Counted from the first letter of the stretch, positions 6,315-26,214 are shown. The stretch is DNA of 32,000 bases from Candidatus Methylomirabilis oxygeniifera (GCA_000091165.1 FP565575.1:750001-782000); one strand, 5' to 3'. Numbers and translations: made by a program. Notes: a model not told the origin generated them from the letters alone.

Positions 6315-6568
6315 TCTATCAGAACCATCCATCATCGCCCCTAGCGATGTCGTAGAGAATGGAGTTGACCGTCATCGCAAACACGATCCTTGAATCGGGC
6401 ATGCTCCGTTGATACAAAGGCGGCAACATCACGTGGTTATTGGATTTATCGCCAGTTCTCGCATGGAGGAGAAGGGATCCGACGGGTGTTGGGGGTTACA
6501 GAAGCGTTGCGAGGTAGTCGTTGTTCAATGTAGCAACGACTCCTTGCTTTCTGACGGAAAGGAGAACA

Positions 6569-7408
6569 ATGAGCTTATTAAAGTGTTTAGCGATAAAGCC
6601 TGAGACGCTCATGCGGATGGCTCTTGGCACAGCGCTCCTGGCCGCGATCCTCGTACCGGCCGAATCGGCGCTGGCGGTTGCTCGCTTTGGTACTCGCTGT
6701 CAGAAGGAATTCCAGAACGGCTGGCGTGCAACGCTCCCGTACATGTGGGATCGCTGTGGGTGGTTCAACGACGAACTCGACGACACCGACACAAAGGTCT
6801 TTTACTGGAACCTCCACGGCGCCCGTAACTCGTTCTCGACCTGCGACAGTTGCGGCAACGGCGTGGATGATGTGCACCTCCTCTACGTGGGCACGCATGG
6901 CGGCGCGATCAACGACACGAACGCCCGCCTGGTGATGTGGGACCAGAACGTGCGTGCGCTCTCCATCACGGACAACTGGCGCTATGGGGACGAGAACACG
7001 GGCGTTGCGTTTTTCGCGCAATACGCCTGCGAAACACTCACGAATGGCGATGGCAATATCTGGAGTCGCTGGCGAACGGCCTTTCGAGGCGGGCTGATCA
7101 TGGCCCTGGGTAGTCACGATAAGCTTTGGGACAGCGTCACGACCAATGAGACCGGTGAAGATTTCGCTGACGATCTTCAGAAAGGAAAAGTTGTCAAGTG
7201 GGCGTGGTTCGACGGCAACGGGGACTGGTGGGAAGACCAGGATGTGGCGGTTATGGCGACGGGGAGTTCCCAGACGGCAGCCAACGACGCCAGCGCGGAT
7301 TGCAAGTTCCGCCGCGACAACGTGAAGTGGCAGAACTTCGGCAGCTTCGCACGCTGGCGCGACGGTCAGGCTGAATGGTGGTGTCGCTCACGCATTGACA
7401 ACAACTGA
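6569..7408 (+). CDS. secreted Trp/Asp-rich protein with a clan-CD-like His/Cys pattern, uncharacterised
   Basis: ATG at 6569 follows AAAGGAG (6558-6564). Hydrophobic signal-like segment (ALGTALLAAILVPAESALA). HLLYVGTHGG (His110) and VAFFAQYACETL (Cys154) each follow a hydrophobic strand, as in legumain, caspases and gingipain. Confidence 0.75.
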   Translation: MSLLKCLAIKPETLMRMALGTALLAAILVPAESALAVARFGTRCQKEFQNGWRATLPYMWDRCGWFNDELDDTDTKVFYWNLHGARNSFSTCDSCGNGVDDVHLLYVGTHGGAINDTNARLVMWDQNVRALSITDNWRYGDENTGVAFFAQYACETLTNGDGNIWSRWRTAFRGGLIMALGSHDKLWDSVTTNETGEDFADDLQKGKVVKWAWFDGNGDWWEDQDVAVMATGSSQTAANDASADCKFRRDNVKWQNFGSFARWRDGQAEWWCRSRIDNN

Positions 7409-7425
7409 ATCGAGAGGTGGATGCT

Positions 7426-8508
7426 ATGCGTATCTCCCGAACAGCGGCCCTGCTCACTGCAGGGTTTGTTCTTACCGCAGCGGCTCTTAGCGCGAATGAA
7501 CTGCGTAAAGGCCACTCCGACTACCTGGCGTCGCTGACGGAGCGCTCACTCAAAAAGGCCTTCCCTGCTCGCAGCGTGCGGCTGCTGGAGGTGGCTCCAG
7601 GCCCAGGCCGCGCCGCCGCCGCCAAGGCGATCCTCGCACGACTGGAACGAGGCGACCTTGGTCGGCGTCTCAGGCTCGCCGATCTGAAGCCGAGAACAGC
7701 GGACCGTCGTGTCCTCTCGTTTCTTGGTGAGGCGGGGTACTTGGATGTCATGGCCGACGGCTCGAAGCTGCGTGTCCGAGGAGCCATAGATGATACGAAG
7801 GAGATTGAACGCGCCGGCGCCGGTCGTATCGAGAAGAAAGCGCTGGAAGATTTAGGCCGTCGCTTCGTCCGTGAGGCGCTCTCGCCGTTGGTCAAGCTGG
7901 GTAAGGGCGAAACGCTGATGTTTCTTGGGGTGCGCTATCTGTACGACGGCGAGGCCGGTACGGAAGCGGCTACCGCGTCCCAAGAGCGCGAGCGGGTGAT
8001 TGCAAGCATCGCGATCTTTGGTCGCGAGGTGGCAGGCCTGCCAATTGTCGGTAGCGGATCGAAGGTGGCCGTATGGTTCGATAACTCCCGTGAACCCGTC
8101 GGCTTCGATGTAGACTGGCCGGTCTACCGCGTGTCGTCTCGTGTCCAGCGTGTGTTGTCACAGGCCGAGTTGGCGCGCCGCATCGCCACGACGACCGTGC
8201 CTCTCGGAGGCACCAAGGACATTACAGTCCGCCGCTTTGAGTGCGGCTATGTCGACCTTGGTGCTACCCGCCGCACGAAGGTTATGCAGGCCGGCTGCTC
8301 CATAGCGTTCGAGGGCCGCGGCGAAGGCGGCGAGGTTTGGGGACGCACGGAGTTTGTGCCGGCTGGTAGGCCCGCGCTAAAGGAGGCGCGGTGGCCGCTC
8401 GCCAATGCGCTAGCGGCGGGGGACGTGATCAACACCGGCACCGAGGAGTTCCAGCGCTTTCTCAACTCACCGAAGGCGCCAGACGAGGCTCCGCCTACGG
8501 CACAGTAA
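7426..8508 (+). CDS. secreted hypothetical protein
   Basis: ATG at 7426 lies 8 nt after GAGAGG. Signal peptide MRISRTAALLTAGFVLTAAALSA. It begins 18 nt after the upstream gene ends. I recognised no motif. Confidence 0.75.
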   Translation: MRISRTAALLTAGFVLTAAALSANELRKGHSDYLASLTERSLKKAFPARSVRLLEVAPGPGRAAAAKAILARLERGDLGRRLRLADLKPRTADRRVLSFLGEAGYLDVMADGSKLRVRGAIDDTKEIERAGAGRIEKKALEDLGRRFVREALSPLVKLGKGETLMFLGVRYLYDGEAGTEAATASQERERVIASIAIFGREVAGLPIVGSGSKVAVWFDNSREPVGFDVDWPVYRVSSRVQRVLSQAELARRIATTTVPLGGTKDITVRRFECGYVDLGATRRTKVMQAGCSIAFEGRGEGGEVWGRTEFVPAGRPALKEARWPLANALAAGDVINTGTEEFQRFLNSPKAPDEAPPTAQ

Positions 8509-8685
8509 GACACCCTCGGCATTTGAGTAGGTGAGCCGTGAGAAATGGAGATGAGTTGCGATTACTGATAGGCGGATGAGTATCGGACCTATACCGAGTT
8601 CCTGGGAAACAATGGTGGTTTTGTGCAGGTGAATCTGCTGTATAGGATGATGTAGTTAACTGCTGACAGCAAGGAGGCGGATGGC

Positions 8686-10851
8686 ATGAATGAGCGAGAA
8701 GAACGCCCGGCTAAGGAGCGCGTAGAGTTCAAGAAGCTTCTTGCGATCAATCCCAACTACTTTGGTAATCTGGAGAAGAGCGAGTTCAAACCCGTCAAGA
8801 AGATTGTCGGAAACACGACGTACGAGGAGGTGACCTGCGTCGGATTCAACCCGGCGCTCAACCTCCTCGAGGCGACCATTCAGATCAAACGACCCGGTGG
8901 CTACAATGGCACCCTCTGTACACCCGGATCGACCGAGTATGTTCGATTCTTTATCGACTACGGCGCCGGCTGGATCGACGTCGGTCTCGCCTCCTTCAAC
9001 GCACATGACATCGCTAACGCTGTCGACTGCGCGAACCATCCCGATAAGCCCATCTCCTACGTCGTGACACTCTCCCTCGACCCCCAGCGGGATACCTGCA
9101 AACACCCCGTTCTGCCGAAGGTCCGCGCCATCCTCTCATGGCAGTTGATGCCTCCGGCGGCGGCCTCGAATTGGCCGCCAATCTGGGGTAACGTACTCGA
9201 CCAGCACATCCAGATCAAGCCGCGGCGCCCGATATTCGGCGACATCTTCGAGGTTATCCCCAAGGACGTGCTGAAGGACCTTCCACCCCTGATCGAGGAG
9301 GTCAAGCCGTTTCCCATCCCACTGCCCGATCCCCCACCGTTGTCCGTGAGCGATCTCGCAGAACTCTATCACGTCAAAGAGAAGACCATGAGCGCCGGTG
9401 TAGAACCCCACCGGTTCGGGCTGGCGCACCTACAGGCGTTGGTGGCATCGGGGACCCAGGACATGCTGTCCGGCGCCAACGTGGAGTGGAAGGCCGCCGG
9501 TATTGATCTGGCTGGGGCACTGGCCGCCCTCGACAAGACCAAGGCGGACGTCTCATATGAAGAACTCAAATGCCTGGGACTGGAGTATAACCTGGATCGC
9601 CTGGTCGCGACCTTCAGGATCAAGCGACCAAGCGGATACTCAGGCAATCTGTGCGCTCAGGGGAGTCAGGAATACGTAGCCTTCTGGGCGGACTGGGACG
9701 ATACGTGCGAGTGGACGTACCTCAATACCGTTACGGTCAACGTCCACGATATCTCGACGATTCCGGCCGACGGGCTCGCCTACAGCGCGATCCTGCCGGT
9801 GGACCTGAACGCCGTCCGGCGTCCCTGCGGCGGCCCGGGTGGCGGGCCGAAGATCGCGCGCATCCGAGCTGTCTTATCGTGGAACAGCCCGCCGTCGACA
9901 ACCGATCCTGACGCGCTGAATCACTGGGGCAACCGTCTGGACGCGCATGCGCAGATCCGCCCCGGCGCCTCGGTCCCCGGAGATCAGCCGTTTATCAGTG
10001 CCATCGGCGGCATCGGCGTCGCCGACATCAACGTCCTCGGCAACGGCATGACTAAGCCCACAGCGACATTCGGCTTCAGCGGCCTCGCTGCCGATTATCC
10101 ATGGCTGCTGAGCCGTGAATGCCCATTCGGCGGCCTGATCATCGTCCAGGGGCCGCCCGTACTCGGGTTCAAGTACCGGCTCTGGGCGCGGGAGTTCGGC
10201 AACGCGATGACCGAGCAGATTGTGACGGACCAGTTCCATGTGATGAACTGGCTCGGGGTCGGATCCGACATCGCGCCGGATCCAATCACGGGCTACGCCA
10301 CCTACATGGATACGCTCTCAAACATGAACCAGGTGCTGGCGCACTGGACGCCGCCGGGAGACGCTCTGTGGGAAATCCGGGTGGAGATGGCCACGCTGGG
10401 CGACGTCGTCGTTGGGACCACTGTGTGGCACAGCATCCAGCTCGATAATACGGCGCCGCGCCGCAAGCCGGCCGTGCTGCCGTTCGAGCCGCCGGCGGTA
10501 ACCTGCGAGATCCACATCGACAGCGGTGGCGACTGCAAGGACTTCACCCAGGGGACGGTGATCCAGGGGCACTTCGTTGCGCGGGACACGCATTTCGGCG
10601 GGTTCTCTCTGACCACACTGCCGTCAAGCATGTTGCCGAACAGTCCCACAACAGCGACGCCGACCACCTCGCAGACGGCCTCGTTTGCCGCCGGCGGCGA
10701 CGAATGGGAGCTTGCCACCATAGGCATGCAACCCTGTGGCTATGTTGTGCTGTTACAGGTCTGGGATCGCTCGATCGTCGGAAGCCGACCCGACTCGCAC
10801 AACTACAACTACTACGACGTGGGGTTCTGTCTGAGGGCGGCGAGTAAGTAG
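8686..10851 (+). CDS. large hypothetical protein (721 aa) with a tandemly duplicated N-terminal domain, no signal peptide
   Basis: AAGGAGG RBS (8671-8677). Long ORF with an internal duplication and a Pro-rich linker (PFPIPLPDPPP). Confidence 0.85.
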   Translation: MNEREERPAKERVEFKKLLAINPNYFGNLEKSEFKPVKKIVGNTTYEEVTCVGFNPALNLLEATIQIKRPGGYNGTLCTPGSTEYVRFFIDYGAGWIDVGLASFNAHDIANAVDCANHPDKPISYVVTLSLDPQRDTCKHPVLPKVRAILSWQLMPPAAASNWPPIWGNVLDQHIQIKPRRPIFGDIFEVIPKDVLKDLPPLIEEVKPFPIPLPDPPPLSVSDLAELYHVKEKTMSAGVEPHRFGLAHLQALVASGTQDMLSGANVEWKAAGIDLAGALAALDKTKADVSYEELKCLGLEYNLDRLVATFRIKRPSGYSGNLCAQGSQEYVAFWADWDDTCEWTYLNTVTVNVHDISTIPADGLAYSAILPVDLNAVRRPCGGPGGGPKIARIRAVLSWNSPPSTTDPDALNHWGNRLDAHAQIRPGASVPGDQPFISAIGGIGVADINVLGNGMTKPTATFGFSGLAADYPWLLSRECPFGGLIIVQGPPVLGFKYRLWAREFGNAMTEQIVTDQFHVMNWLGVGSDIAPDPITGYATYMDTLSNMNQVLAHWTPPGDALWEIRVEMATLGDVVVGTTVWHSIQLDNTAPRRKPAVLPFEPPAVTCEIHIDSGGDCKDFTQGTVIQGHFVARDTHFGGFSLTTLPSSMLPNSPTTATPTTSQTASFAAGGDEWELATIGMQPCGYVVLLQVWDRSIVGSRPDSHNYNYYDVGFCLRAASK
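8818..9222 (+). repeat. domain copy 1 of the intragenic duplication (aa 45-179)
   Basis: TYEEVTCVGF..ATIQIKRPGGYNGTLCTPGSTEYVRF..AHDI..KVRAILSW..WGNVLDQHIQIKP aligns with copy 2. Confidence 0.8.
9553..9963 (+). repeat. domain copy 2 of the intragenic duplication (aa 290-426)
   Basis: SYEELKCLGL..ATFRIKRPSGYSGNLCAQGSQEYVAF..VHDI..RIRAVLSW..WGNRLDAHAQIRP. Similarity is at the protein level only, so the duplication is old. Confidence 0.8.
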
Positions 10852-11142
10852 CCGGGTTGCCGGTCGAAGAACAATACGGACAAGGAACCCGATCAAGCGA
10901 AACGTGAGGTAGTATGTTGCTTAGCGGATGGAAAAGGAGTATTTGTAAGTAACGTATGACCGTGCCCAATCAACCGGAATAAGCTCGGCCAACCTTAAGT
11001 AGGGGAACACTCACGCTAACGCGTAAGAGGGACTTCAGCAGTCCCCCAGATCAGATTCGCATCGGCGGTAGAGTTTCTGACCATGCGAGAGGGGTCCACC
11101 CAAGTCATCGGACAAAACTAAACGAAAAAAGGAGACGAACAC

Positions 11143-12057
11143 ATGGCGGAGACAAATGAGCGTCGGGGAATGGGGTGGTTGCCGGACTACCCCAGTTTTC
11201 GCGATCACACAGTCGATCTGGATGAGCTGCCCCAACGGCTAAAGGATGTAGGACAGCGCGAGTCAGTGAAGGCGATGCTGAAAAAGGTCGGCGTTGCGGC
11301 GCCACTGAAGGCGCCGCCGGCCTCAGTTGATCTTCGGGCCTGGTGCTCCGCTATCGAGGATCAGGGCGCCTTAGGCTCCTGCACGGCGAATGCCGGGGTA
11401 GGAATAGTGGAGTATTTTGAGTATCGAGCCTTCGGACGTCACCTGGATGCCTCCCGGCTCTTTTTGTATAAAGCGACCAGAAACCTGATGCATCTGACAG
11501 GCGATACGGGCGCCTTCCTCAGGACCACGATGGGGGCCCTGGTGCTGTTCGGTGTCCCGCCCGAGGAGTACTGGTTGTATACCGTCGCCGATTTTGATAA
11601 GGAGCCTACTGCGTTCTGCTATGCCTTCGCCCAGAACTATCAGGCGATTCAGTACTACCGTCTCGATCCACCAGGCACCAGTAAGCCGACCCTGCTCACC
11701 CGGATTAAGACCAACCTGGCCGGCGGGCTGCCGTCGATGTTTGGTTTTACGGTCTACACCTCGATCTCGCAGGCGGCCGGAAACGGCAAGATTCCTTTTC
11801 CGACTGCCGGCGAGAAGGTAGCGGGTGGCCACGCCATCGTGGCCGTGGGGTACGATGACGCGCTGAAGATTAAGAATACGAATCCCGGCGGTGCAGCAAC
11901 GACGGGGGCGCTGCTGATTCGGAACTCGTGGGGAACGGGATGGGGCGACCAGGGGTACGGTTGGCTCCCTTACGACTATGTGTTGAAAGGGCTGGCTGTG
12001 GATTGGTGGTCACTCCTTAAGAACGAGTGGATAGATACCGGGGCGTTCAAGGTATAA
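11143..12057 (+). CDS. papain-family (C1) cysteine peptidase, no signal peptide
   Basis: DQGALGSCTANA (Gln/Cys), GGHAIVAVGYDD (His), IRNSWGTGWGDQGYGWLPY (Asn/Trp). AAAAAGGAGA RBS. Confidence 0.9.
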   Translation: MAETNERRGMGWLPDYPSFRDHTVDLDELPQRLKDVGQRESVKAMLKKVGVAAPLKAPPASVDLRAWCSAIEDQGALGSCTANAGVGIVEYFEYRAFGRHLDASRLFLYKATRNLMHLTGDTGAFLRTTMGALVLFGVPPEEYWLYTVADFDKEPTAFCYAFAQNYQAIQYYRLDPPGTSKPTLLTRIKTNLAGGLPSMFGFTVYTSISQAAGNGKIPFPTAGEKVAGGHAIVAVGYDDALKIKNTNPGGAATTGALLIRNSWGTGWGDQGYGWLPYDYVLKGLAVDWWSLLKNEWIDTGAFKV

Positions 12058-16237: not shown

Positions 16238-16504
16238 ATGCCTATGAACAGGGACGATTTAAGCGAACAGGAGCAAGCCTGTCAAGGGAAATCTTCCCCG
16301 CGCTCTGCTCCATCGGGCCGGACCATCGGTCTCCGCCAATGTTTTGTGTGCGGCGGAGCCATCACGCTCCAGGAAACCTATCTCCTCGCTGAAGGGCCGA
16401 CCGCGGATATTGTCCGGACTGTCTGCCGCCCCTGCTATTGTCGCAAAAGTCTTGAGATCCGCGAAGCGGTCCGACGAGAGCGCGACGAAGGATTCATCCG
16501 CTAG
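16238..16504 (+). CDS. hypothetical Cys-rich small protein (CxxC ... CxxC)
   Basis: Open frame containing CFVCGG and CRPCYC. No clear RBS, and its 5' end overlaps the tRNA-Ala promoter on the opposite strand. Confidence 0.3.
   Translation: MPMNRDDLSEQEQACQGKSSPRSAPSGRTIGLRQCFVCGGAITLQETYLLAEGPTADIVRTVCRPCYCRKSLEIREAVRRERDEGFIR
16257..16285 (-). promoter_or_regulatory. sigma70-type promoter of tRNA-Ala
   Basis: On the minus strand: TTGACA (16285-16280), 17-nt spacer, TTAAAT (16262-16257), 27 nt upstream of the tRNA 5' end. Confidence 0.6.
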
Positions 16505-16594
16505 CCGGACCTCTTTAGAGCACTCCTGGCGAGGGGCGACAGCGCAGTCATGGACATGAAAGTCTACGCGGTGAGGTATTCAATGCCCGCCCGC

Positions 16595-16704
16595 GTCATT
16601 GCGAGCGACCAACGGGAGCGTGGCAATCTCATCGTTGTACCCAGGGGCCACGGACCCCAACGACTGTGAGATTGCTTCGGTCGCTGCCGCTTCCTCGCAA
16701 TGAC
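16595..16704. repeat. nested palindromic REP/MITE-like element
   Basis: Outer inverted repeat GTCATTGCGAG (16595-16605) / CTCGCAATGAC (16694-16704). Inner inverted repeat GCAATCTCA (16623-16631) / TGAGATTGC (16667-16675). A further small palindrome sits in the centre. Confidence 0.6.
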
Positions 16705-16784
16705 CCGCGAGGGAGACTTTCTAACCAATGACCAGGCAGCGGTTGGCGAACGACATTGGGACGGTACCTGGGGGTCGAATCCGC

Positions 16785-16814
16785 TTGACAGTTCGTAGAG
16801 CGCTTTGATAGATA
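16785..16814 (+). promoter_or_regulatory. candidate sigma70 promoter for the PqqD/B2/precursor/kinase operon
   Basis: TTGACA (16785-16790) with ATAGAT or TAGATA at a 17 or 18 nt spacing. Weak -10. Confidence 0.35.
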
Positions 16815-16899
16815 GAAGAATCGATAAAGCCCATGAGGCGCCTACTTCCTGAGGGGCCTCAGCCGCTCCCTGAGTGTTGAGGAGCCGAAGAGCTGGAGA

Positions 16900-17217
16900 A
16901 TGGTAAGCGATCCTGCGACAATCTATCCGATCAGGAGCGAGCATGTGACCTGGAAAGCCCTCGACGGCGAGAGCGTCCTCCTCCATCTCGAGACCGGCGT
17001 GTACTTCAGCCTGAATGAAACCGGGACCGCTGCGTGGGAGCTGTTCGATGGCGCAACTCCGTTGGCAGCCGTCGGCGAGGCCATCTGTGCTCGATTTAAT
17101 GTCTCCGCAGAGCAGGTCCGGCAAGATCTCTTCGAGTTGACGCAGACGCTTCAGGAAGAAGGATTGGTGGAAATTCATGAAGACCCTGCGACGCCTCCGG
17201 GAACTGACCGATCCTGA
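16900..17217 (+). CDS. PqqD-family peptide chaperone (RiPP recognition element, lasso B1-like)
   Basis: Typical PqqD pattern: W.ALDGESVLLHLETGVYFSLNETGTAAWELFDG..PLAAV.EAI...F.V..EQVRQDL.EL...L.EEGLV. GGAGA immediately precedes the ATG. Confidence 0.85.
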   Translation: MVSDPATIYPIRSEHVTWKALDGESVLLHLETGVYFSLNETGTAAWELFDGATPLAAVGEAICARFNVSAEQVRQDLFELTQTLQEEGLVEIHEDPATPPGTDRS

Positions 17218-17689
17218 GTCGTTCCGGCTCTTCGGTTGGTCGCTTCTGATGGTTTTCGTGGTGGCAACCCTCTTGCGCTTTACGCGGTTGCCGGTGTTGC
17301 TCCGCTATTTGACCCGACCGGCGGCCCCTATACGCACCGGCCACAAGTCGGTACGGACCCTCGAGACCCGCGCAGTCGATCGGGTCCGCCGGTATAGCCA
17401 TGTGATTATCACGGGTCTCCTTCGATCGCGACGCCCATGTCTGCTGCGTTCGCTGGTCCTGTACCGATACTGTTGGAAGTGCGGAGTGCCCGTATCGATC
17501 CACTTTGGGGTACGGTCGGGTATGGGCGGATTGGAAGGACATAGTTGGGTCACGTGTGACGGGATCCCTTTAGGGGAATCGGATGCAGGGGTGCGTCCCT
17601 ACATCGTCGTCTATTCGTTCCCCATCAACACCGACGGGACCGACCCGCATGACGCTCCGGCTGTGGCCGGATATCTGGAATGTGCGTAA
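17177..17689 (+). CDS. lasso-peptide B2-type transglutaminase-like cysteine protease
   Basis: Hydrophobic N-terminal helix, then RRPCLLRSLVLYRYCWKCGVPVSIHFGV...LEGHSWVTCDG (Cys...His...Asp pattern of McjB-C/Transglut_core3). Overlaps the PqqD gene by 41 nt. Confidence 0.85.
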   Translation: MKTLRRLRELTDPESFRLFGWSLLMVFVVATLLRFTRLPVLLRYLTRPAAPIRTGHKSVRTLETRAVDRVRRYSHVIITGLLRSRRPCLLRSLVLYRYCWKCGVPVSIHFGVRSGMGGLEGHSWVTCDGIPLGESDAGVRPYIVVYSFPINTDGTDPHDAPAVAGYLECA

Positions 17690-17737
17690 GCTATAGCCAC
17701 TGACGCTGAAACGATATTGAGAAGGAGGAGGATACGC

Positions 17738-17860
17738 ATGAAAGAGATCGTTACGGAAGAACCGAAGATGCCCTATACGAAACCGACCCTCACCAAGCAC
17801 AAGCCGCTGCGGGACATTACGGCCGGGGATGTCTCAGTGATCGGTGGGGTAAGGGTGTGA
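17738..17860 (+). CDS. 40-aa candidate RiPP precursor peptide (MKEIVTEEPKMPYTKPTLTKHKPLRDITAGDVSVIGGVRV)
   Basis: Missing from the ORF track because it is too short. ATG lies 7-8 nt after GAAGGAGGAGGA. It sits between the B2 protease and the kinase. Y13/P16/L18/T28 match the lasso leader register Y-17/P-14/L-12/T-2 if cleavage occurs before G30. Confidence 0.6.
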   Translation: MKEIVTEEPKMPYTKPTLTKHKPLRDITAGDVSVIGGVRV

Positions 17861-17906
17861 GGTAGACCGATCCTTAGCGACTTGTGACGGTAGTGCCGAT
17901 CGCAAG

Positions 17907-18926
17907 ATGAACCGCATGATCACACAGACGTTTAGTATCTACGGAATCGACGTTCAGGTAGATGCGGATATTCCGCTACTCGCCGCCGGGATTGATGGAT
18001 TGCTGCGGCGGTTTTCCCGACATCCTGCAACCGACAGTCGGCCGCTGCGGTTTGTCTATGAACGCAGCGGGAAGGTTGCGGACCCTCTTTCGCATAAAGC
18101 ATCCGACGGAGACGGATCACTGCTCTTCTCGACCTCCCGGGAGAATGCCTTTGATCTGGCCGGTCGGCTGGGCATCGACTGGGATGTCTATGCTCGGGAT
18201 GGCGGTTTCTTGCTGGACTATCATCGGCATGGCCGACTATGGCTGGACACCGCGGGCGGACGGCTTGAGGGGTCGCTGGCCGAGCCGCTGGATCTACACT
18301 ATGCGCTGCTTTCCAGCATCTTCTTCTTTTTTCCGTTCGCGCAGCTTCTGGCCCGGCGCGGACTCCACGTTGTGCATGCGGCCGCCATGGAGCGGAACGA
18401 GCGCGGGGTACTGATTCCCGGAATGAGTGGGAGTGGTAAGAGTACCTGCTGTGTCTCCCTGATGCGGGCAGGGTATCGCTGCCTCTCGGATGACAAGCCG
18501 TTTCTACGGCAGAACGGGAGCGGTGTCGAGTTGCTCCCGTTTCCCGAAATGATCGATGTGACTGATCAGTCTGTCGCCTTCTTTCCGGAGCTCAACAGAG
18601 CGGCATCAGACCTCGAGTCCGGCTACCGGAAGAAGCGGTTCTGTGCCGAGACGCTGTATCCGGGTTCCGTGGCTGACGCTGTCACGCCCAGCGTCATCCT
18701 ATTTCCGGAAATCAGTGGAGAGCCGACCAGTAGAGTCGAGGCGCTGTCAAAGGCGAAGGCGCTCCAAGCGCTTCTGCCGCACAGCCTGCTCTGTTTTGAC
18801 CGAGAGATCTCGGCGCGTCATTTTGACCTGCTCGCGCGCCTCGTCGAGACGACCGCCAGTTATCGTCTCTATTTCGGCCGTGACGTCCTGGATCTTCCTA
18901 CCCTAGTCGATCAGCTCCTCCAGTGA
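17907..18926 (+). CDS. HPr kinase/phosphorylase-related kinase (HprK-like)
   Basis: GVLIPGMSGSGKSTCCVSLMRAGYRCLSDDKPFL closely parallels the HprK catalytic core GVLITGDSGVGKSE..LEL...GH.LV.DD. Confidence 0.85.
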   Translation: MNRMITQTFSIYGIDVQVDADIPLLAAGIDGLLRRFSRHPATDSRPLRFVYERSGKVADPLSHKASDGDGSLLFSTSRENAFDLAGRLGIDWDVYARDGGFLLDYHRHGRLWLDTAGGRLEGSLAEPLDLHYALLSSIFFFFPFAQLLARRGLHVVHAAAMERNERGVLIPGMSGSGKSTCCVSLMRAGYRCLSDDKPFLRQNGSGVELLPFPEMIDVTDQSVAFFPELNRAASDLESGYRKKRFCAETLYPGSVADAVTPSVILFPEISGEPTSRVEALSKAKALQALLPHSLLCFDREISARHFDLLARLVETTASYRLYFGRDVLDLPTLVDQLLQ

Positions 18927-18965
18927 ACCGTATCCTACAGCAACACCTCGTCTCGTTCTAAGGTG

Positions 18966-18994
18966 TTGACACTACGGTGTCCGGCACGTAGTCT
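18966..18994 (+). promoter_or_regulatory. candidate sigma70 promoter upstream of GT2
   Basis: TTGACA (18966-18971), 17-nt spacer, TAGTCT (18989-18994). Weak -10. Confidence 0.3.
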
Positions 18995-19003
18995 TAGGCT
19001 GTG

Positions 19004-19852
19004 ATGAGCGTATCTGACGACCTGCCGCTGGTCTCGATCATTACCCCCTCTTTCAATCAGGGACAATTCATTCGTCGAACTATCGAGAGCGTCCTCTCCC
19101 AGGACTACCAGAAGCTGGAATACCTTGTGATGGATGGGGGTTCTACCGACGAAACCCTCGACATCCTGCGCAGCTATGGGAACCGGATCACGTGGAGATC
19201 CGGGCCGGACGGAGGACAGGCGGATGCCGTCAACGCCGGTGTTCGGCTGGCTCAGGGTGACATTCTCGGCTGGCTGAATTCCGACGACACCTATCAACCG
19301 GGCGCGGTGAGGGCCGCCGCGACCTATCTGGCGGCCCATCCGGCAACAGCGGTGATATATGGGGATGCGCACTACATCGATAAGCAGGACAGGGTAATCG
19401 GGATCTATCCTACCGAGGATTTCGACCGGGATCGACTGGCCAAGGCGTGCTTCATATGCCAGCCTGCCGCCTTCTTCCGACGGTCAGCCATCGAGACCGT
19501 GGGCGGGCTCGATACGCGCCTGCAGTACTGCATGGACTACGATCTGTGGATTCGGCTGGGGCGTCGATTTCCGATCGATCGAATCCCGTACGCGCTGGCC
19601 AACAGCCGCCAGTACCCTCAGACCAAGACCTGGGCTCAACGGGATCGACTGTTCGAAGAGCTGTGCGAAGTCACGCAGCGATCGTTCGGGTATACATCGC
19701 GCCATTGGCGGATGTGGCATGCCTACGCTCGCGTGAAAGGTGTCTCATGGCCGCTCGCTCGAACGGTGTTGTATCCGGTCAGGACAAGGCTGCCGCTATG
19801 GATCAATCGATTGATCTTCCGGGATATGCGCGCCGGGAAAAGACGAAGCTGA
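19004..19852 (+). CDS. family 2 glycosyltransferase
   Basis: VSIITPSFNQGQFIRRTIESVLSQDY..LEYLVMDGGSTDET, followed by a DxD-like region (NSDD). Confidence 0.9.
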   Translation: MSVSDDLPLVSIITPSFNQGQFIRRTIESVLSQDYQKLEYLVMDGGSTDETLDILRSYGNRITWRSGPDGGQADAVNAGVRLAQGDILGWLNSDDTYQPGAVRAAATYLAAHPATAVIYGDAHYIDKQDRVIGIYPTEDFDRDRLAKACFICQPAAFFRRSAIETVGGLDTRLQYCMDYDLWIRLGRRFPIDRIPYALANSRQYPQTKTWAQRDRLFEELCEVTQRSFGYTSRHWRMWHAYARVKGVSWPLARTVLYPVRTRLPLWINRLIFRDMRAGKRRS

Positions 19853-19878: not shown

Positions 19879-20673
19879 TCAGACAGTTGACGAAGCGCTG
19901 AACTTCCGGTACTCGGTCACGACGTCGTCGGCCGGGCCGGTGGCAGCGACCTGCCCGTGATGAATCCAAATGGCTTTCTGGCAGGTGTCCTGGATCAGTG
20001 TGAGGTCATGCGATACCAGAACAATGGTGACTCCTTTCGCCTTGAATGCTTCCATCCTTTCCTCACACTTTTTTTGGAAGGCGGCGTCCCCAACAGAGAA
20101 GAGTTCGTCGATCAGGAGTAAGTCCGGCTTGGCATCCGTCGCGATCGCGAATCCGAGCCGGGCAGACATCCCGACTGAATAGTTCATCAATGGCACATCG
20201 ATAAACTCCTCCAGCTCGGCGAACTTGACGATACGATCAAATCGCCGTTCAAGCTCTTTTTGTGAGAACCCCAGAAGCGATCCGTAGAGGAAGATGTTCT
20301 CTCGTCCGGTCAAAAACGAGTCAAACCCGGCGCCGAGCTCGATGAGGGGAGCGATTCGTCCTCGTACAACGACCCGCCCGACAGAGGGGGGAATGATGCC
20401 GGCGATCACCTTCAGAAGCGTACTCTTTCCCGCTCCGTTGGCTCCGATGATCCCGAGAATCTCCCCGGGATCTACAGAGAAGGACACCCCCCGTAGCGGC
20501 CAAAACTCGTCCCGTCCTTTTGTCTGACGCTTCAACAGCCGGATCGCGTGATCCCGTATTGATCTGATTCGCTCCCGGTGCAGCAGCAAACGGATGGAGA
20601 GATCTTCAATCTCAAGAACTGGTGGCCGTCCAAGGTGAGCTGGAGGAGCCGAGAGGCGTGGAACGTCAAGCAT
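19879..20673 (-). CDS. polysaccharide/O-antigen ABC exporter ATP-binding protein (Wzt/TagH-like, NBD only)
   Basis: Walker A GANGAGKST, signature YSVGMSARL, Walker B LLLIDE. The ATG at 20673 is preferred over the track start at 20769, which would overlap the permease gene. Confidence 0.9.
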   Translation of the reverse strand: MLDVPRLSAPPAHLGRPPVLEIEDLSIRLLLHRERIRSIRDHAIRLLKRQTKGRDEFWPLRGVSFSVDPGEILGIIGANGAGKSTLLKVIAGIIPPSVGRVVVRGRIAPLIELGAGFDSFLTGRENIFLYGSLLGFSQKELERRFDRIVKFAELEEFIDVPLMNYSVGMSARLGFAIATDAKPDLLLIDELFSVGDAAFQKKCEERMEAFKAKGVTIVLVSHDLTLIQDTCQKAIWIHHGQVAATGPADDVVTEYRKFSASSTV

Positions 20674-20720
20674 GGTCGGGCGCGTGAACAAGTCGAGAGA
20701 TGTGGCCCGGTTGCCGGCCG

Positions 20721-21575
20721 CTAGACATAGTGGATGAACCGGGACTCGAATCGGTGAAAGACCATCCACCCGATGGCGAGGGTGACCAGGGAGAGGGCGA
20801 GCCCGAAGATCATCATTCCGATGGGGGGCGCCGCGCCCAGGTAGACAGGAGCTCGAAGGGATTCCAGAAGCGCATACATGGGATTCATATACAGGAGAAA
20901 CTTGAACTTCTCCGGGATGATCTCGGGCGGATAGAAGATCGGGGTGGCATAAAACCAGGCCAACAGACCGGCCTCATAGAAATACTTGACGTCCCGGAAG
21001 AAGACATTGAAGGTTCCAACAAGTAAGGCGATGCCCAAGGCGAAACAGGTCAGACTGACGAGTGGGATCGGCAGCCAGAGCAGATGCAGGCTGAAACCCG
21101 CGCCGACTGCGGCCATCAGGAGAAAAAGCGGGACTAATGTGAAGACAAAATTGACGACCTGTGAGACAACAGTCGCAATCGGGAAGATCGCTTTCGGAAC
21201 AAAGACCTTTCGGATGATGGGACCGTTGAGAACGACGCTGTCCAAACCCCGTGAGGTGCCTAACGAGAAGAGGTTCCACCCCAGCAGAGCGGTGAACACA
21301 TACAGCGAGTAATTCGGACGGCTACTGAAAATCCTGGAGAAGACCATCGTAAAGATAACCATAGCCAGGAGAGGATTCAACACAGTCCAGGCGAATCCAA
21401 GCGCCGACCGCTTATAGCGAAGCTTGACCTCACGGATGACAAGCTGACGCAACAGCTCCCGATACCGGAGGAGCGTCAAAAATGGCCCGGTGGATCGGTG
21501 ATCTGCGATGTACAGTCCGGGCTGAGGCGCACGTCTTTCATGACTCATTGCACGTCCGATATTGTCCTCCGGCAT
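20721..21575 (-). CDS. ABC-2 type polysaccharide exporter permease (Wzm/TagG-like)
   Basis: N-terminal LRYKRSALGFAWTVLNPLL ABC-2 signature and six hydrophobic segments. An alternative start at 21548 is possible. Confidence 0.9.
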   Translation of the reverse strand: MPEDNIGRAMSHERRAPQPGLYIADHRSTGPFLTLLRYRELLRQLVIREVKLRYKRSALGFAWTVLNPLLAMVIFTMVFSRIFSSRPNYSLYVFTALLGWNLFSLGTSRGLDSVVLNGPIIRKVFVPKAIFPIATVVSQVVNFVFTLVPLFLLMAAVGAGFSLHLLWLPIPLVSLTCFALGIALLVGTFNVFFRDVKYFYEAGLLAWFYATPIFYPPEIIPEKFKFLLYMNPMYALLESLRAPVYLGAAPPIGMMIFGLALSLVTLAIGWMVFHRFESRFIHYV

Positions 21576-25791: not shown

Positions 25792-26214
25792 ATGATTCAT
25801 AAGGCGTTGCTCCCCCAAGATGTTGAGGAGCGGCTACGCTCCCTTGGCCCGGCGCTACAACAATGCTCTGGTGTCCTCTTCGCCTACCTGTTTGGCGGGG
25901 CGACGGTTTTACCTCTCAAGCCCCTGAGTGACGTGGACGTAGCCGTCTATCTGGATGAATCGGTCGATCCGGTCGAGGGGCGGTTGGAGGCCGTGGGAGT
26001 TGTTGCCGCTCACTTAGGAACCGACGAGGTAGATCTGGTGGTCCTCAATACCGCGCAAACAGCCCTCACGGGGCGGATTCTCCAGACCCGACGGGTCATC
26101 GTCGATCGCGATCCGTTCCGCCGCCACCGCTTCGAGTCCCTCGCCCTCCGGGAATTCTTCGACTTTCGTCTATTTGAGCATCGCCTCCTCACGAGGAGAT
26201 ATGGGAGTGGTTGA
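25792..26214 (+). CDS. mntA: nucleotidyltransferase-domain antitoxin (MntA-like)
   Basis: LFGGA...PLSDVDVAVYL minimal nucleotidyltransferase motif (G[GS]-x9-13-DxD). It overlaps the start of the following DUF86/HepT frame by 14 nt. Confidence 0.8.
   Translation: MIHKALLPQDVEERLRSLGPALQQCSGVLFAYLFGGATVLPLKPLSDVDVAVYLDESVDPVEGRLEAVGVVAAHLGTDEVDLVVLNTAQTALTGRILQTRRVIVDRDPFRRHRFESLALREFFDFRLFEHRLLTRRYGSG

Follow-up and report, generated by a model that had tools for sequence, protein, structure and literature searches.

What do lasso-type maturation genes make in a place where no lasso cyclase accompanies them? The question is raised by a 32,000-nucleotide stretch of the genome of Candidatus Methylomirabilis oxygeniifera (GCA_000091165.1 FP565575.1:750001-782000), here called the window, with positions counted from its first letter. 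Four tightly packed genes at 16900-18926 on the plus strand encode a PqqD-type RiPP recognition element (RRE; RiPP, a peptide made on ribosomes and modified after translation), a lasso-type B2 leader peptidase, a peptide of 40 amino acids (aa) and an HprK-like kinase (Table 1); an initial annotation, made from the DNA without database searches, had placed all four correctly. Our comparison of sequences suggests that they probably form a cyclase-free cassette derived from lasso machinery, whose product would be a linear phosphorylated peptide, and that this cassette belongs to a family in Nitrospirota and Methylomirabilota.

Gene-like open reading frames (ORFs) no shorter than 110 aa, antisense ORFs and both ends of the window were scanned for the cyclase domain Asn_synthase (PF00733), and no match was found on either strand over the whole 32-kb window, confirming that it is cyclase-free as first described. 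One genome per species was scanned for relatives of the kinase, which gave 174 relatives; 77 loci were kept, designated here by L numbers, and reference proteins were mapped onto them. None of the 77 loci has a cyclase within about 10 kb, so that the comparison of homologous cassettes called for by the initial annotation yields a cyclase co-occurrence of 0/77, and the SGGxDS PP-loop motif is found in 0 of the 6,464 ORFs of the related loci. E. coli AsnB, searched by BLASTP against the ORFs of these loci, gave four weak matches that were rejected as cyclases and assigned to PurF/GATase neighbours. The match in L028 is a GATase domain according to Pfam, and the other three, of approximately 476-491 aa, lie at the position of the PurF annotated in L004; their size and position point to PurF/GATase.

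The related loci are mostly from Nitrospirota, with two from Methylomirabilota. Of the 77, 52 combine PqqD, kinase, NTP_transf_5 and B2, many of the others being cut by contig ends; 70 have NTP_transf_5 and 39 an MsbA-type ABC exporter. The usual gene order in Nitrospirota is PqqD, precursor, kinase, NTP_transf_5, B2 and exporter. This comparison therefore describes a conserved family and not a broken lasso cluster. The kinase family itself is large, since a profile search of 1.84 billion representative proteins returned 680 clusters at E ≤ 1e-30. In the literature on HprK-related kinases, Methylomirabilis lasso peptides and Nitrospira PqqD/HPr kinase, we came across no paper dealing with the Nitrospirota or Methylomirabilota clusters. 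The RRE-Finder study recorded that about half of lasso-like RREs have no peptidase and cyclase nearby, an observation that was not followed up.

The precursor gene provides the second line of evidence. Small ORFs adjoining the kinases gave 86 distinct sequences, all of which share the leader motif P.L.K[HYQ]..L.D[VIL]T, also written [Y]xxPxLxKHxxLRD[IV]T, with Ala at position -1 directly after the motif in 83. Their cores are hypervariable and range from 5 to 38 aa, although 83 of the 86 have a Ser among core residues 1-5, the first one being at position 3 in 49 and at position 4 in 23. Because the leader recurs in so many distinct precursors beside homologous kinases, the small ORF of the window is not a product of chance. 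A leader under constraint, a core free to vary and a single fixed site for modification are what marks a RiPP precursor. The comparison of the window with L011 shows 5 synonymous and 0 non-synonymous changes in the leader, and the L011 core has been changed by a 17-bp frameshifting indel with retention of the Ser. The recurrence of the leader and its synonymous-only divergence uphold the original view of the 40-aa ORF as a genuine precursor. L092 encodes two precursors with the cores INLPSGAG and EDLSVIGGVRVLR, the second of which resembles the window core.

If the peptide is cut after Ala29, leader residues Tyr13, Pro16, Leu18 and Thr28 fall at positions -17, -14, -12 and -2, which is the spacing of lasso leaders. 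For these leaders, both the [Y/W]xxPx[L/V/I…] motif and a penultimate Thr are documented (PMC13381572, PMC10368454). The core, in turn, does not fit the lasso-ring pattern, having 11 aa and no Asp or Glu at positions 7-9, and it ends in Val and not in Ser, the conserved Ser of the family being at core position 3-4. Since there is neither a cyclase nor an acidic residue at core positions 7-9, no macrolactam ring is expected. Both proposals of the initial annotation on this point are thus borne out: the lasso recognition and cleavage machinery appears to be repurposed without a cyclase, as seen from its absence in the window and the 77 loci and from the lasso register of the leader, and the product is most likely a short linear Ser-modified peptide, given the core composition, the conserved Ser and the conserved kinase motif.

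Among the Nitrospira precursors, cores of the form GQSGYNCD[DE]K… (L019, L022, L023, L025, L028, L034, L062 and L076) have Gly1, Asp8/Glu9 and a length of 15-19 aa and so match the residue pattern of a lasso ring; no cyclase was found within 10 kb of these loci.

The RRE scores 67.3 bits against PF05402 (gathering score 23.4), and stays under the cut-offs of the lasso-specific NCBIfam RRE models (48/70 and 46/80). Its top solved relative is the lasso RRE TbiB1 (E 2.4e-11), to which it is nearer than to two PqqD-family PDB entries (E 2e-3 to 4e-3) that are presumably the RREs of the study of linear polyphosphorylated peptides (LPPs) considered below. The last 41 nt of the RRE gene are shared with the start of the B2 gene, whose product scores 56.3 bits against NF033537 lasso_biosyn_B2 (cut-off 33) and 55.7 bits against PF13471; a sequence search of the PDB found no solved relative of B2. 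Across 60 homologues, the invariant residues are Cys88, His122 and Glu134, with no invariant Asp. As Glu134 is invariant and Asp128 is present in only 39 of the 60, the catalytic triad is Cys-His-Glu and not Cys-His-Asp; the Cys and His of the triad first described are thus retained, and its Asp is replaced.

The kinase is less well covered by the curated families. Its best NCBIfam match is TIGR04352 (HprK_rel_A; 72.3 bits, cut-off 200), TIGR04249 (ScmC; cut-off 125) gives 39.7 bits and PF07475 25.3 bits (cut-off 33.3), so that of the profiles originally suggested those for the RRE and B2 match and those for the kinase all stay under their curated cut-offs. However, the P-loop GMSGSGKST and residues His157, Lys178, Asp195 and Asp196 are invariant in 17 homologues down to 33% identity, and these four residues correspond to the His-Lys-Asp-Asp motif known from lasso-tailoring kinases (PMC9266682). 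A profile search matches the P-loop region of HprK, and a Foldseek search with the AlphaFold2 model (mean pLDDT 85.5) retrieves PEPCK (E 1e-8) and the HprK/P entry 3tqf. With the invariant motif and the predicted fold, the kinase assignment is firmer than the family scores imply.

From these elements, a maturation pathway can be tentatively proposed. The PqqD-type RRE would bind the 40-aa precursor via Tyr13-x-x-Pro16-x-Leu18, and the HprK-like kinase would then phosphorylate Ser33, at core position 4, possibly repeatedly, with the leader still attached. B2, acting through Cys88, His122 and Glu134, would cleave between Ala29 and Gly30, with Thr28 at -2, and the linear 11-mer GDV(pS)VIGGVRV would be released. 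The computed [M+H]+ values are 1057.600 for unmodified GDVSVIGGVRV and 1137.566 for its monophosphorylated form.

The closest known system to the window cassette is that of the LPPs of Bacillota (Popov et al., Nat Commun 2026; PMC13381572). In a heterologous host, the LPP was a linear core, polyphosphorylated on Ser3 and cut after a Thr, and the unphosphorylated precursor was poorly cleaved; the leader has a YxxP motif, LPPs are said to be restricted to Bacillota, and capsule loci are the setting of both LPP and paeninodin clusters (PMC13381572). Both systems combine a discrete PqqD-type RRE with an HprK-like kinase in the absence of a cyclase, and both have a YxxP leader motif, a Thr near the cleavage site and a Ser near the core N-terminus, which is Ser3 in the LPP and Ser3 or Ser4 in the family of the window. 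Both also lie within polysaccharide loci, and the NTP transferase and MsbA-type exporter of LPP clusters reappear in relatives of the window cassette. The leader peptidases, in contrast, are different, a SipW-like signal peptidase in LPPs and a lasso B2 cysteine peptidase in the window's family; no SipW-like signal peptidase I domain was found among the window ORFs. The cores differ as well, with 5-38 aa in this family against 45 aa in the LPP studied. Relative to LPPs, therefore, the new elements are the B2 peptidase and the host phyla (Methylomirabilota and Nitrospirota instead of Bacillota), and the window form is additionally without the NTP transferase and exporter that belong to the LPP core gene set. 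The earlier remark that no product or function had been shown for kinases of this kind is outdated for the related LPPs (PMC13381572), and stands for the B2-type family.

The phosphorylated lasso peptides paeninodin (PadeK) and pseudomycoidin (PsmK/PsmN) share with the window cassette B1, B2 and an HprK-like kinase with His-Lys-Asp-Asp, a kinase that is expected to act on the precursor ahead of cleavage and, in the case of pseudomycoidin, the NTP_transf_5 partner (PsmN family) that is found in relatives of the cassette. They differ in having a cyclase and a C-terminal acceptor Ser, whereas the conserved Ser of the window's family is near the core N-terminus; in addition, the window leader has Tyr where paeninodin-type RREs favour Trp (PMC13381572). 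Canonical split-B lasso clusters (TbiB1/TbiB2, fusilassin) are similar in their RRE and B2 homologues, in Gly as core residue 1 and in the leader spacing Tyr-17, Pro-14, Leu-12 and Thr-2, but the window has no Asn-synthetase-like cyclase and no ring-acceptor Asp/Glu, its core is too short to thread, and the third catalytic residue of B2 in its family is the invariant Glu. Finally, TIGR04352 HprK_rel_A, SynChlorMet ScmC/ScmD and PF27840 share the kinase superfamily and the PqqD partner, and a radical-SAM/SPASM enzyme is likewise found in Methylomirabilis sister clusters. The window kinase, however, is far under the equivalog cut-offs of TIGR04352 and ScmC, which are annotation-level families with no known product.

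Within Methylomirabilota, the cassette occurs in two forms. Type I (L001 from M. lanthanidiphila, L005 and L012) comprises PqqD, B2, a radical-SAM/SPASM enzyme, precursors, kinase and NTP_transf_5, with two to five precursors per intact locus and two MsbA-type exporters nearby, and L009 shows the type I order, but its radical-SAM gene is truncated, it has a single precursor and its contig includes no exporter. In type II (the window, L011 and L092), PqqD and B2 come before one or two precursors and the kinase, after which lie a GT2 glycosyltransferase gene and convergent Wzt and Wzm. The window cassette is a reduced form of its fuller relatives, which have radical-SAM/SPASM enzymes, NTP_transf_5 and MsbA-type exporters. 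L098/L099 (Methylomirabilota, GCA_003104975.1) contain the same UbiE, UbiA, tRNA-Ala and 88-aa ORF as the window, then approximately 55 bp, GT2, Wzt and Wzm and no cassette. This empty site identifies the cassette as a 2.5-kb indel, i.e. a presence/absence polymorphism, at the edge of the polysaccharide locus. In L008 (800-925), a deletion starts at the 88-aa ORF's end and reaches into the precursor core, of which the remnant '…AVIGGGRV*' is left after the 88-aa ORF; this partial loss implies that the cassette is dispensable and may be decaying in some lineages. The ratio of non-synonymous to synonymous substitution rates (dN/dS) is 0.15-0.33 for RRE, B2 and kinase (0.27-0.33 for the RRE versus L092 and L011, and 0.15-0.28 for the kinase), compared with 0.10 for UbiA and 0.14-0.18 for GT2, which indicates that the cassette genes are under purifying selection, weaker than that on UbiA or GT2.

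As further observations on these loci, the type I clusters at L001 5700-12114 and L005 235-4869 encode three to five precursors with Cys-free cores of 5-10 aa (e.g. ISSPD, DSSPI, GTPVSLK), and the precursors of L001 are interrupted by a PAP2/vanadium-chloroperoxidase-like gene. L011 (DATMXF010000215.1) is labelled 'Patescibacteria group bacterium'; its UbiA is 94% and its kinase 91% identical to those of the window, and it is probably a mis-binned Methylomirabilis contig.

Several points weigh against the reading of the cassette as the source of a linear phosphopeptide. The kinase is under every curated family cut-off, the cyclase search in the host genome was limited to the 32-kb window, and 14 of the 86 cores, all from Nitrospira, combine a small residue 1 with Asp/Glu at 7-9. 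Moreover, three things found in its relatives are missing from the window form, namely NTP_transf_5, a radical-SAM enzyme and a dedicated exporter, and L008 has lost the RRE, B2 and leader, with the kinase (85% identical) and GT2 intact. The cassette could be a decaying remnant, a stripped copy of the fuller cluster of L001, L005 and L012 that makes no useful product and is heading for loss, in agreement also with the truncated radical-SAM gene of L009, the empty site in L098 and L099 and the dN/dS values of the cassette genes (0.25-0.33) above those of UbiA and GT2. We consider this unlikely because three independent assemblies (the window, L011 and L092) each have all four ORFs intact, their dN/dS is well under 1, the leader is fully conserved with synonymous changes only, L092 retains two precursors with different cores, and the ribosome-binding site and an upstream block are conserved. 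That the product is a true lasso peptide, closed by a cyclase encoded elsewhere in the genome, appears extremely unlikely. In its favour, B1 and B2 are genuine lasso-type proteins, the leader keeps the lasso register, core residue 1 is Gly, and the genome was read for 32 kb only; nevertheless, an 11-aa core with no Asp/Glu at 7-9, sister cores down to 5 aa and the absence of a cyclase within about 10 kb in 77 species-level loci speak against it, and, to our knowledge, every characterised lasso cluster includes the cyclase together with B.

The location of the cassette raises a different alternative. The genes downstream are as originally described, namely GT2, convergent Wzt/Wzm and, beyond these, GDP-mannose dehydratase, epimerases, a sulfotransferase and GT4, and the peptide might be coupled to this machinery through glycosylation by GT2, perhaps sulfation, and export by Wzm/Wzt, or might prime or cap a glycan. 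GT2 follows the cassette on the same strand after 75 nt, the arrangement is kept in L011 and L092, and both kinase and GT2 survive in L008. Tight PqqD-kinase-GT2-GT2-NTP_transf_5 operons also occur in distant relatives, from Planctomycetota, Gaiellaceae and a third genome, with ABC-2 transporter genes near the Gaiellaceae operons and approximately 6 kb off in the third genome, which has a sulfotransferase too; the Planctomycetota locus has neither ABC-2 transporter nor sulfotransferase. The capsule-locus setting of LPP and paeninodin clusters (PMC13381572) and the attachment of a hexose to phosphoserine by PsmN in pseudomycoidin (PMC9266682) point in the same direction. However, GT2, Wzt and Wzm are conserved without the cassette in L098 and L099, where the L099 GT2 gene (79% DNA identity to that of the window) directly follows the 88-aa ORF, and therefore these genes do not depend on the cassette. 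A GT2 homologue is present in the cassette-free polysaccharide locus L095, and such homologues occur in thousands in ordinary polysaccharide loci; the window GT2 is just 30% identical to the GT2 of the distant operons, the closest relatives of the cassette have MsbA-type exporters and NTP_transf_5, and the downstream polysaccharide genes differ between the window and L092. On account of the empty site and the L095 homologue, GT2 and Wzm/Wzt were dropped as dedicated partners, and the functional link between peptide and polysaccharide that had been proposed is not sustained: the adjacency is probably positional and not functional, and coupling in the window is distinctly unlikely. For the wider superfamily, a functional tie to glycan chemistry is plausible because of the distant GT2 operons and the LPP and paeninodin clusters in capsule loci, although it is not demonstrated for the window GT2. 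A more specific version, in which the phosphoserine peptide would be glycosylated as a handle for GT2 and Wzm/Wzt (for NTP_transf_5 or paired GT2s in relatives) and a peptide-linked or peptide-primed glycan would be exported, is very unlikely; if true, it would explain why PqqD-kinase modules, LPPs and paeninodins are found in polysaccharide loci across several phyla.

Table 1. Features of the cassette and its surroundings in the window.
Feature	Position	Strand	Basis or remark
Segment present in the window, L011 and L092, absent from the empty site L098/L099	16508..19017	.	BLASTN boundaries versus L099: 16507, 19018
Promoter-like block TTGACA, 18 nt, TGaTAGATA (tentative)	16785..16814	+	identical in the window, L092 and L011
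Palindrome CTGAGGGGCCTCAG, perfect, within the cassette's 5' leader region	16849..16862	+	kept in the window, L092 and L011
PqqD-type RiPP recognition element (B1), 105 aa	16900..17217	+	PF05402
Lasso-type B2 cysteine leader peptidase, 170 aa	17177..17689	+	NF033537, PF13471
Shine-Dalgarno sequence AAGGAGGAGG of the precursor gene	17722..17731	+	read from the sequence, 6 nt 5' of ATG; kept in L011
Precursor ORF, 40 aa, MKEIVTEEPKMPYTKPTLTKHKPLRDITAGDVSVIGGVRV	17738-17860	+	strong ribosome-binding site AAGGAGGAGG
Precursor leader, residues 1-29, MKEIVTEEPKMPYTKPTLTKHKPLRDITA	17738..17824	+	motif common to 86 precursors
Predicted core GDVSVIGGVRV (11 aa, Ser at core position 4) and stop codon	17825..17860	+	
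HprK-like (ScmC-family, PF27840) P-loop kinase, 339 aa	17907..18926	+	motifs, predicted fold
GT2 glycosyltransferase	19001..19852	+	neighbour, no demonstrated part of the system
ABC-2 polysaccharide exporter, Wzt (19879-20769) and Wzm (20721-21575)	19879..21575	-	NF010065, NF050108, NF050109; neighbour, no demonstrated part

Upstream of the cassette, the flanks of the promoter-like block vary among the window, L092 and L011. A consensus promoter scan did not call this block, the promoter and terminator scan of the cassette gave nothing useful, and an Rfam search returned the two tRNAs and nothing else. Between the 88-aa ORF and the cassette lies a palindromic element of approximately 185 bp (16547-16732) with nested inverted repeats, CATTGCGAGCGA…GGCAATC / GATTGC…CGCAATG, which looks like a miniature inverted-repeat transposable element; it is absent in L092 and L011, and a 71% identical copy is present in L099 in reversed orientation, upstream of the tRNA-Ala. 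The 88-aa ORF itself (16238-16504) has two CxxC pairs and no Pfam match, and adjoins tRNA-Ala(GGC) in the window, L092, L008 and the empty-site L099, independently of the cassette. Farther upstream, the window encodes at 6521-12057 a DUF6345 protein, a papain-family peptidase and two ORFs (363 aa and 721 aa) with no Pfam match, and L092 has a papain-family peptidase beside a chagasin-type inhibitor (I42).

Downstream, the window GT2 is without 11 residues near its C-terminus (19700-19800) that are found in L092 and L099 (…YPGRMLLPERVFWGIRKRLPLW… versus …YPVRTRLPLW…). A Polbeta/MNT-type nucleotidyltransferase of a toxin-antitoxin antitoxin family is encoded at 25792-26214, inside the polysaccharide locus, and HepT/MNT pairs are located at similar positions in L008 and L098.

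Beyond the cassette family proper, many Nitrospira genomes contain a second, different module of PqqD, kinase, a membrane protein of the fatty-acid-hydroxylase family (PF04116) and NTP_transf_5 (L038 9037-13317; also L064, L022, L069 and L074), often a few kb from the first module. In the distant operons L100 (7583-8014), L089 (6405-6854) and L088 (9510-10004), no separate precursor ORF was found; their PqqD proteins have a C-terminal tail with a leader-like [FY]xxPx[IL], a conserved DPxHEVDExGWP end and no conserved Ser, and each may be an RRE fused to its own substrate.

As for what the finding means, genome-mining rules that require a cyclase miss clusters of this kind, and rules based on B2 and RRE mislabel them as lasso peptides. 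The interest lies chiefly in the wider family that the window has revealed, its own reduced and polymorphic copy being less informative. The full cassette, partial deletion and empty site in Methylomirabilis nonetheless constitute a natural comparison series for function, and the 86 natural precursors, with their fixed leader and fixed Ser, are a substrate panel for studying how RRE, kinase and B2 cooperate. More generally, the family suggests that the lasso B1/B2 pair can serve as a stand-alone processing module outside lasso peptides. The idea of a cyclase-free phosphopeptide, confined in 2026 to Bacillota, would thereby extend to Nitrospirota, which include nitrite oxidisers and comammox bacteria, and to Methylomirabilota, the nitrite-dependent methane oxidisers.

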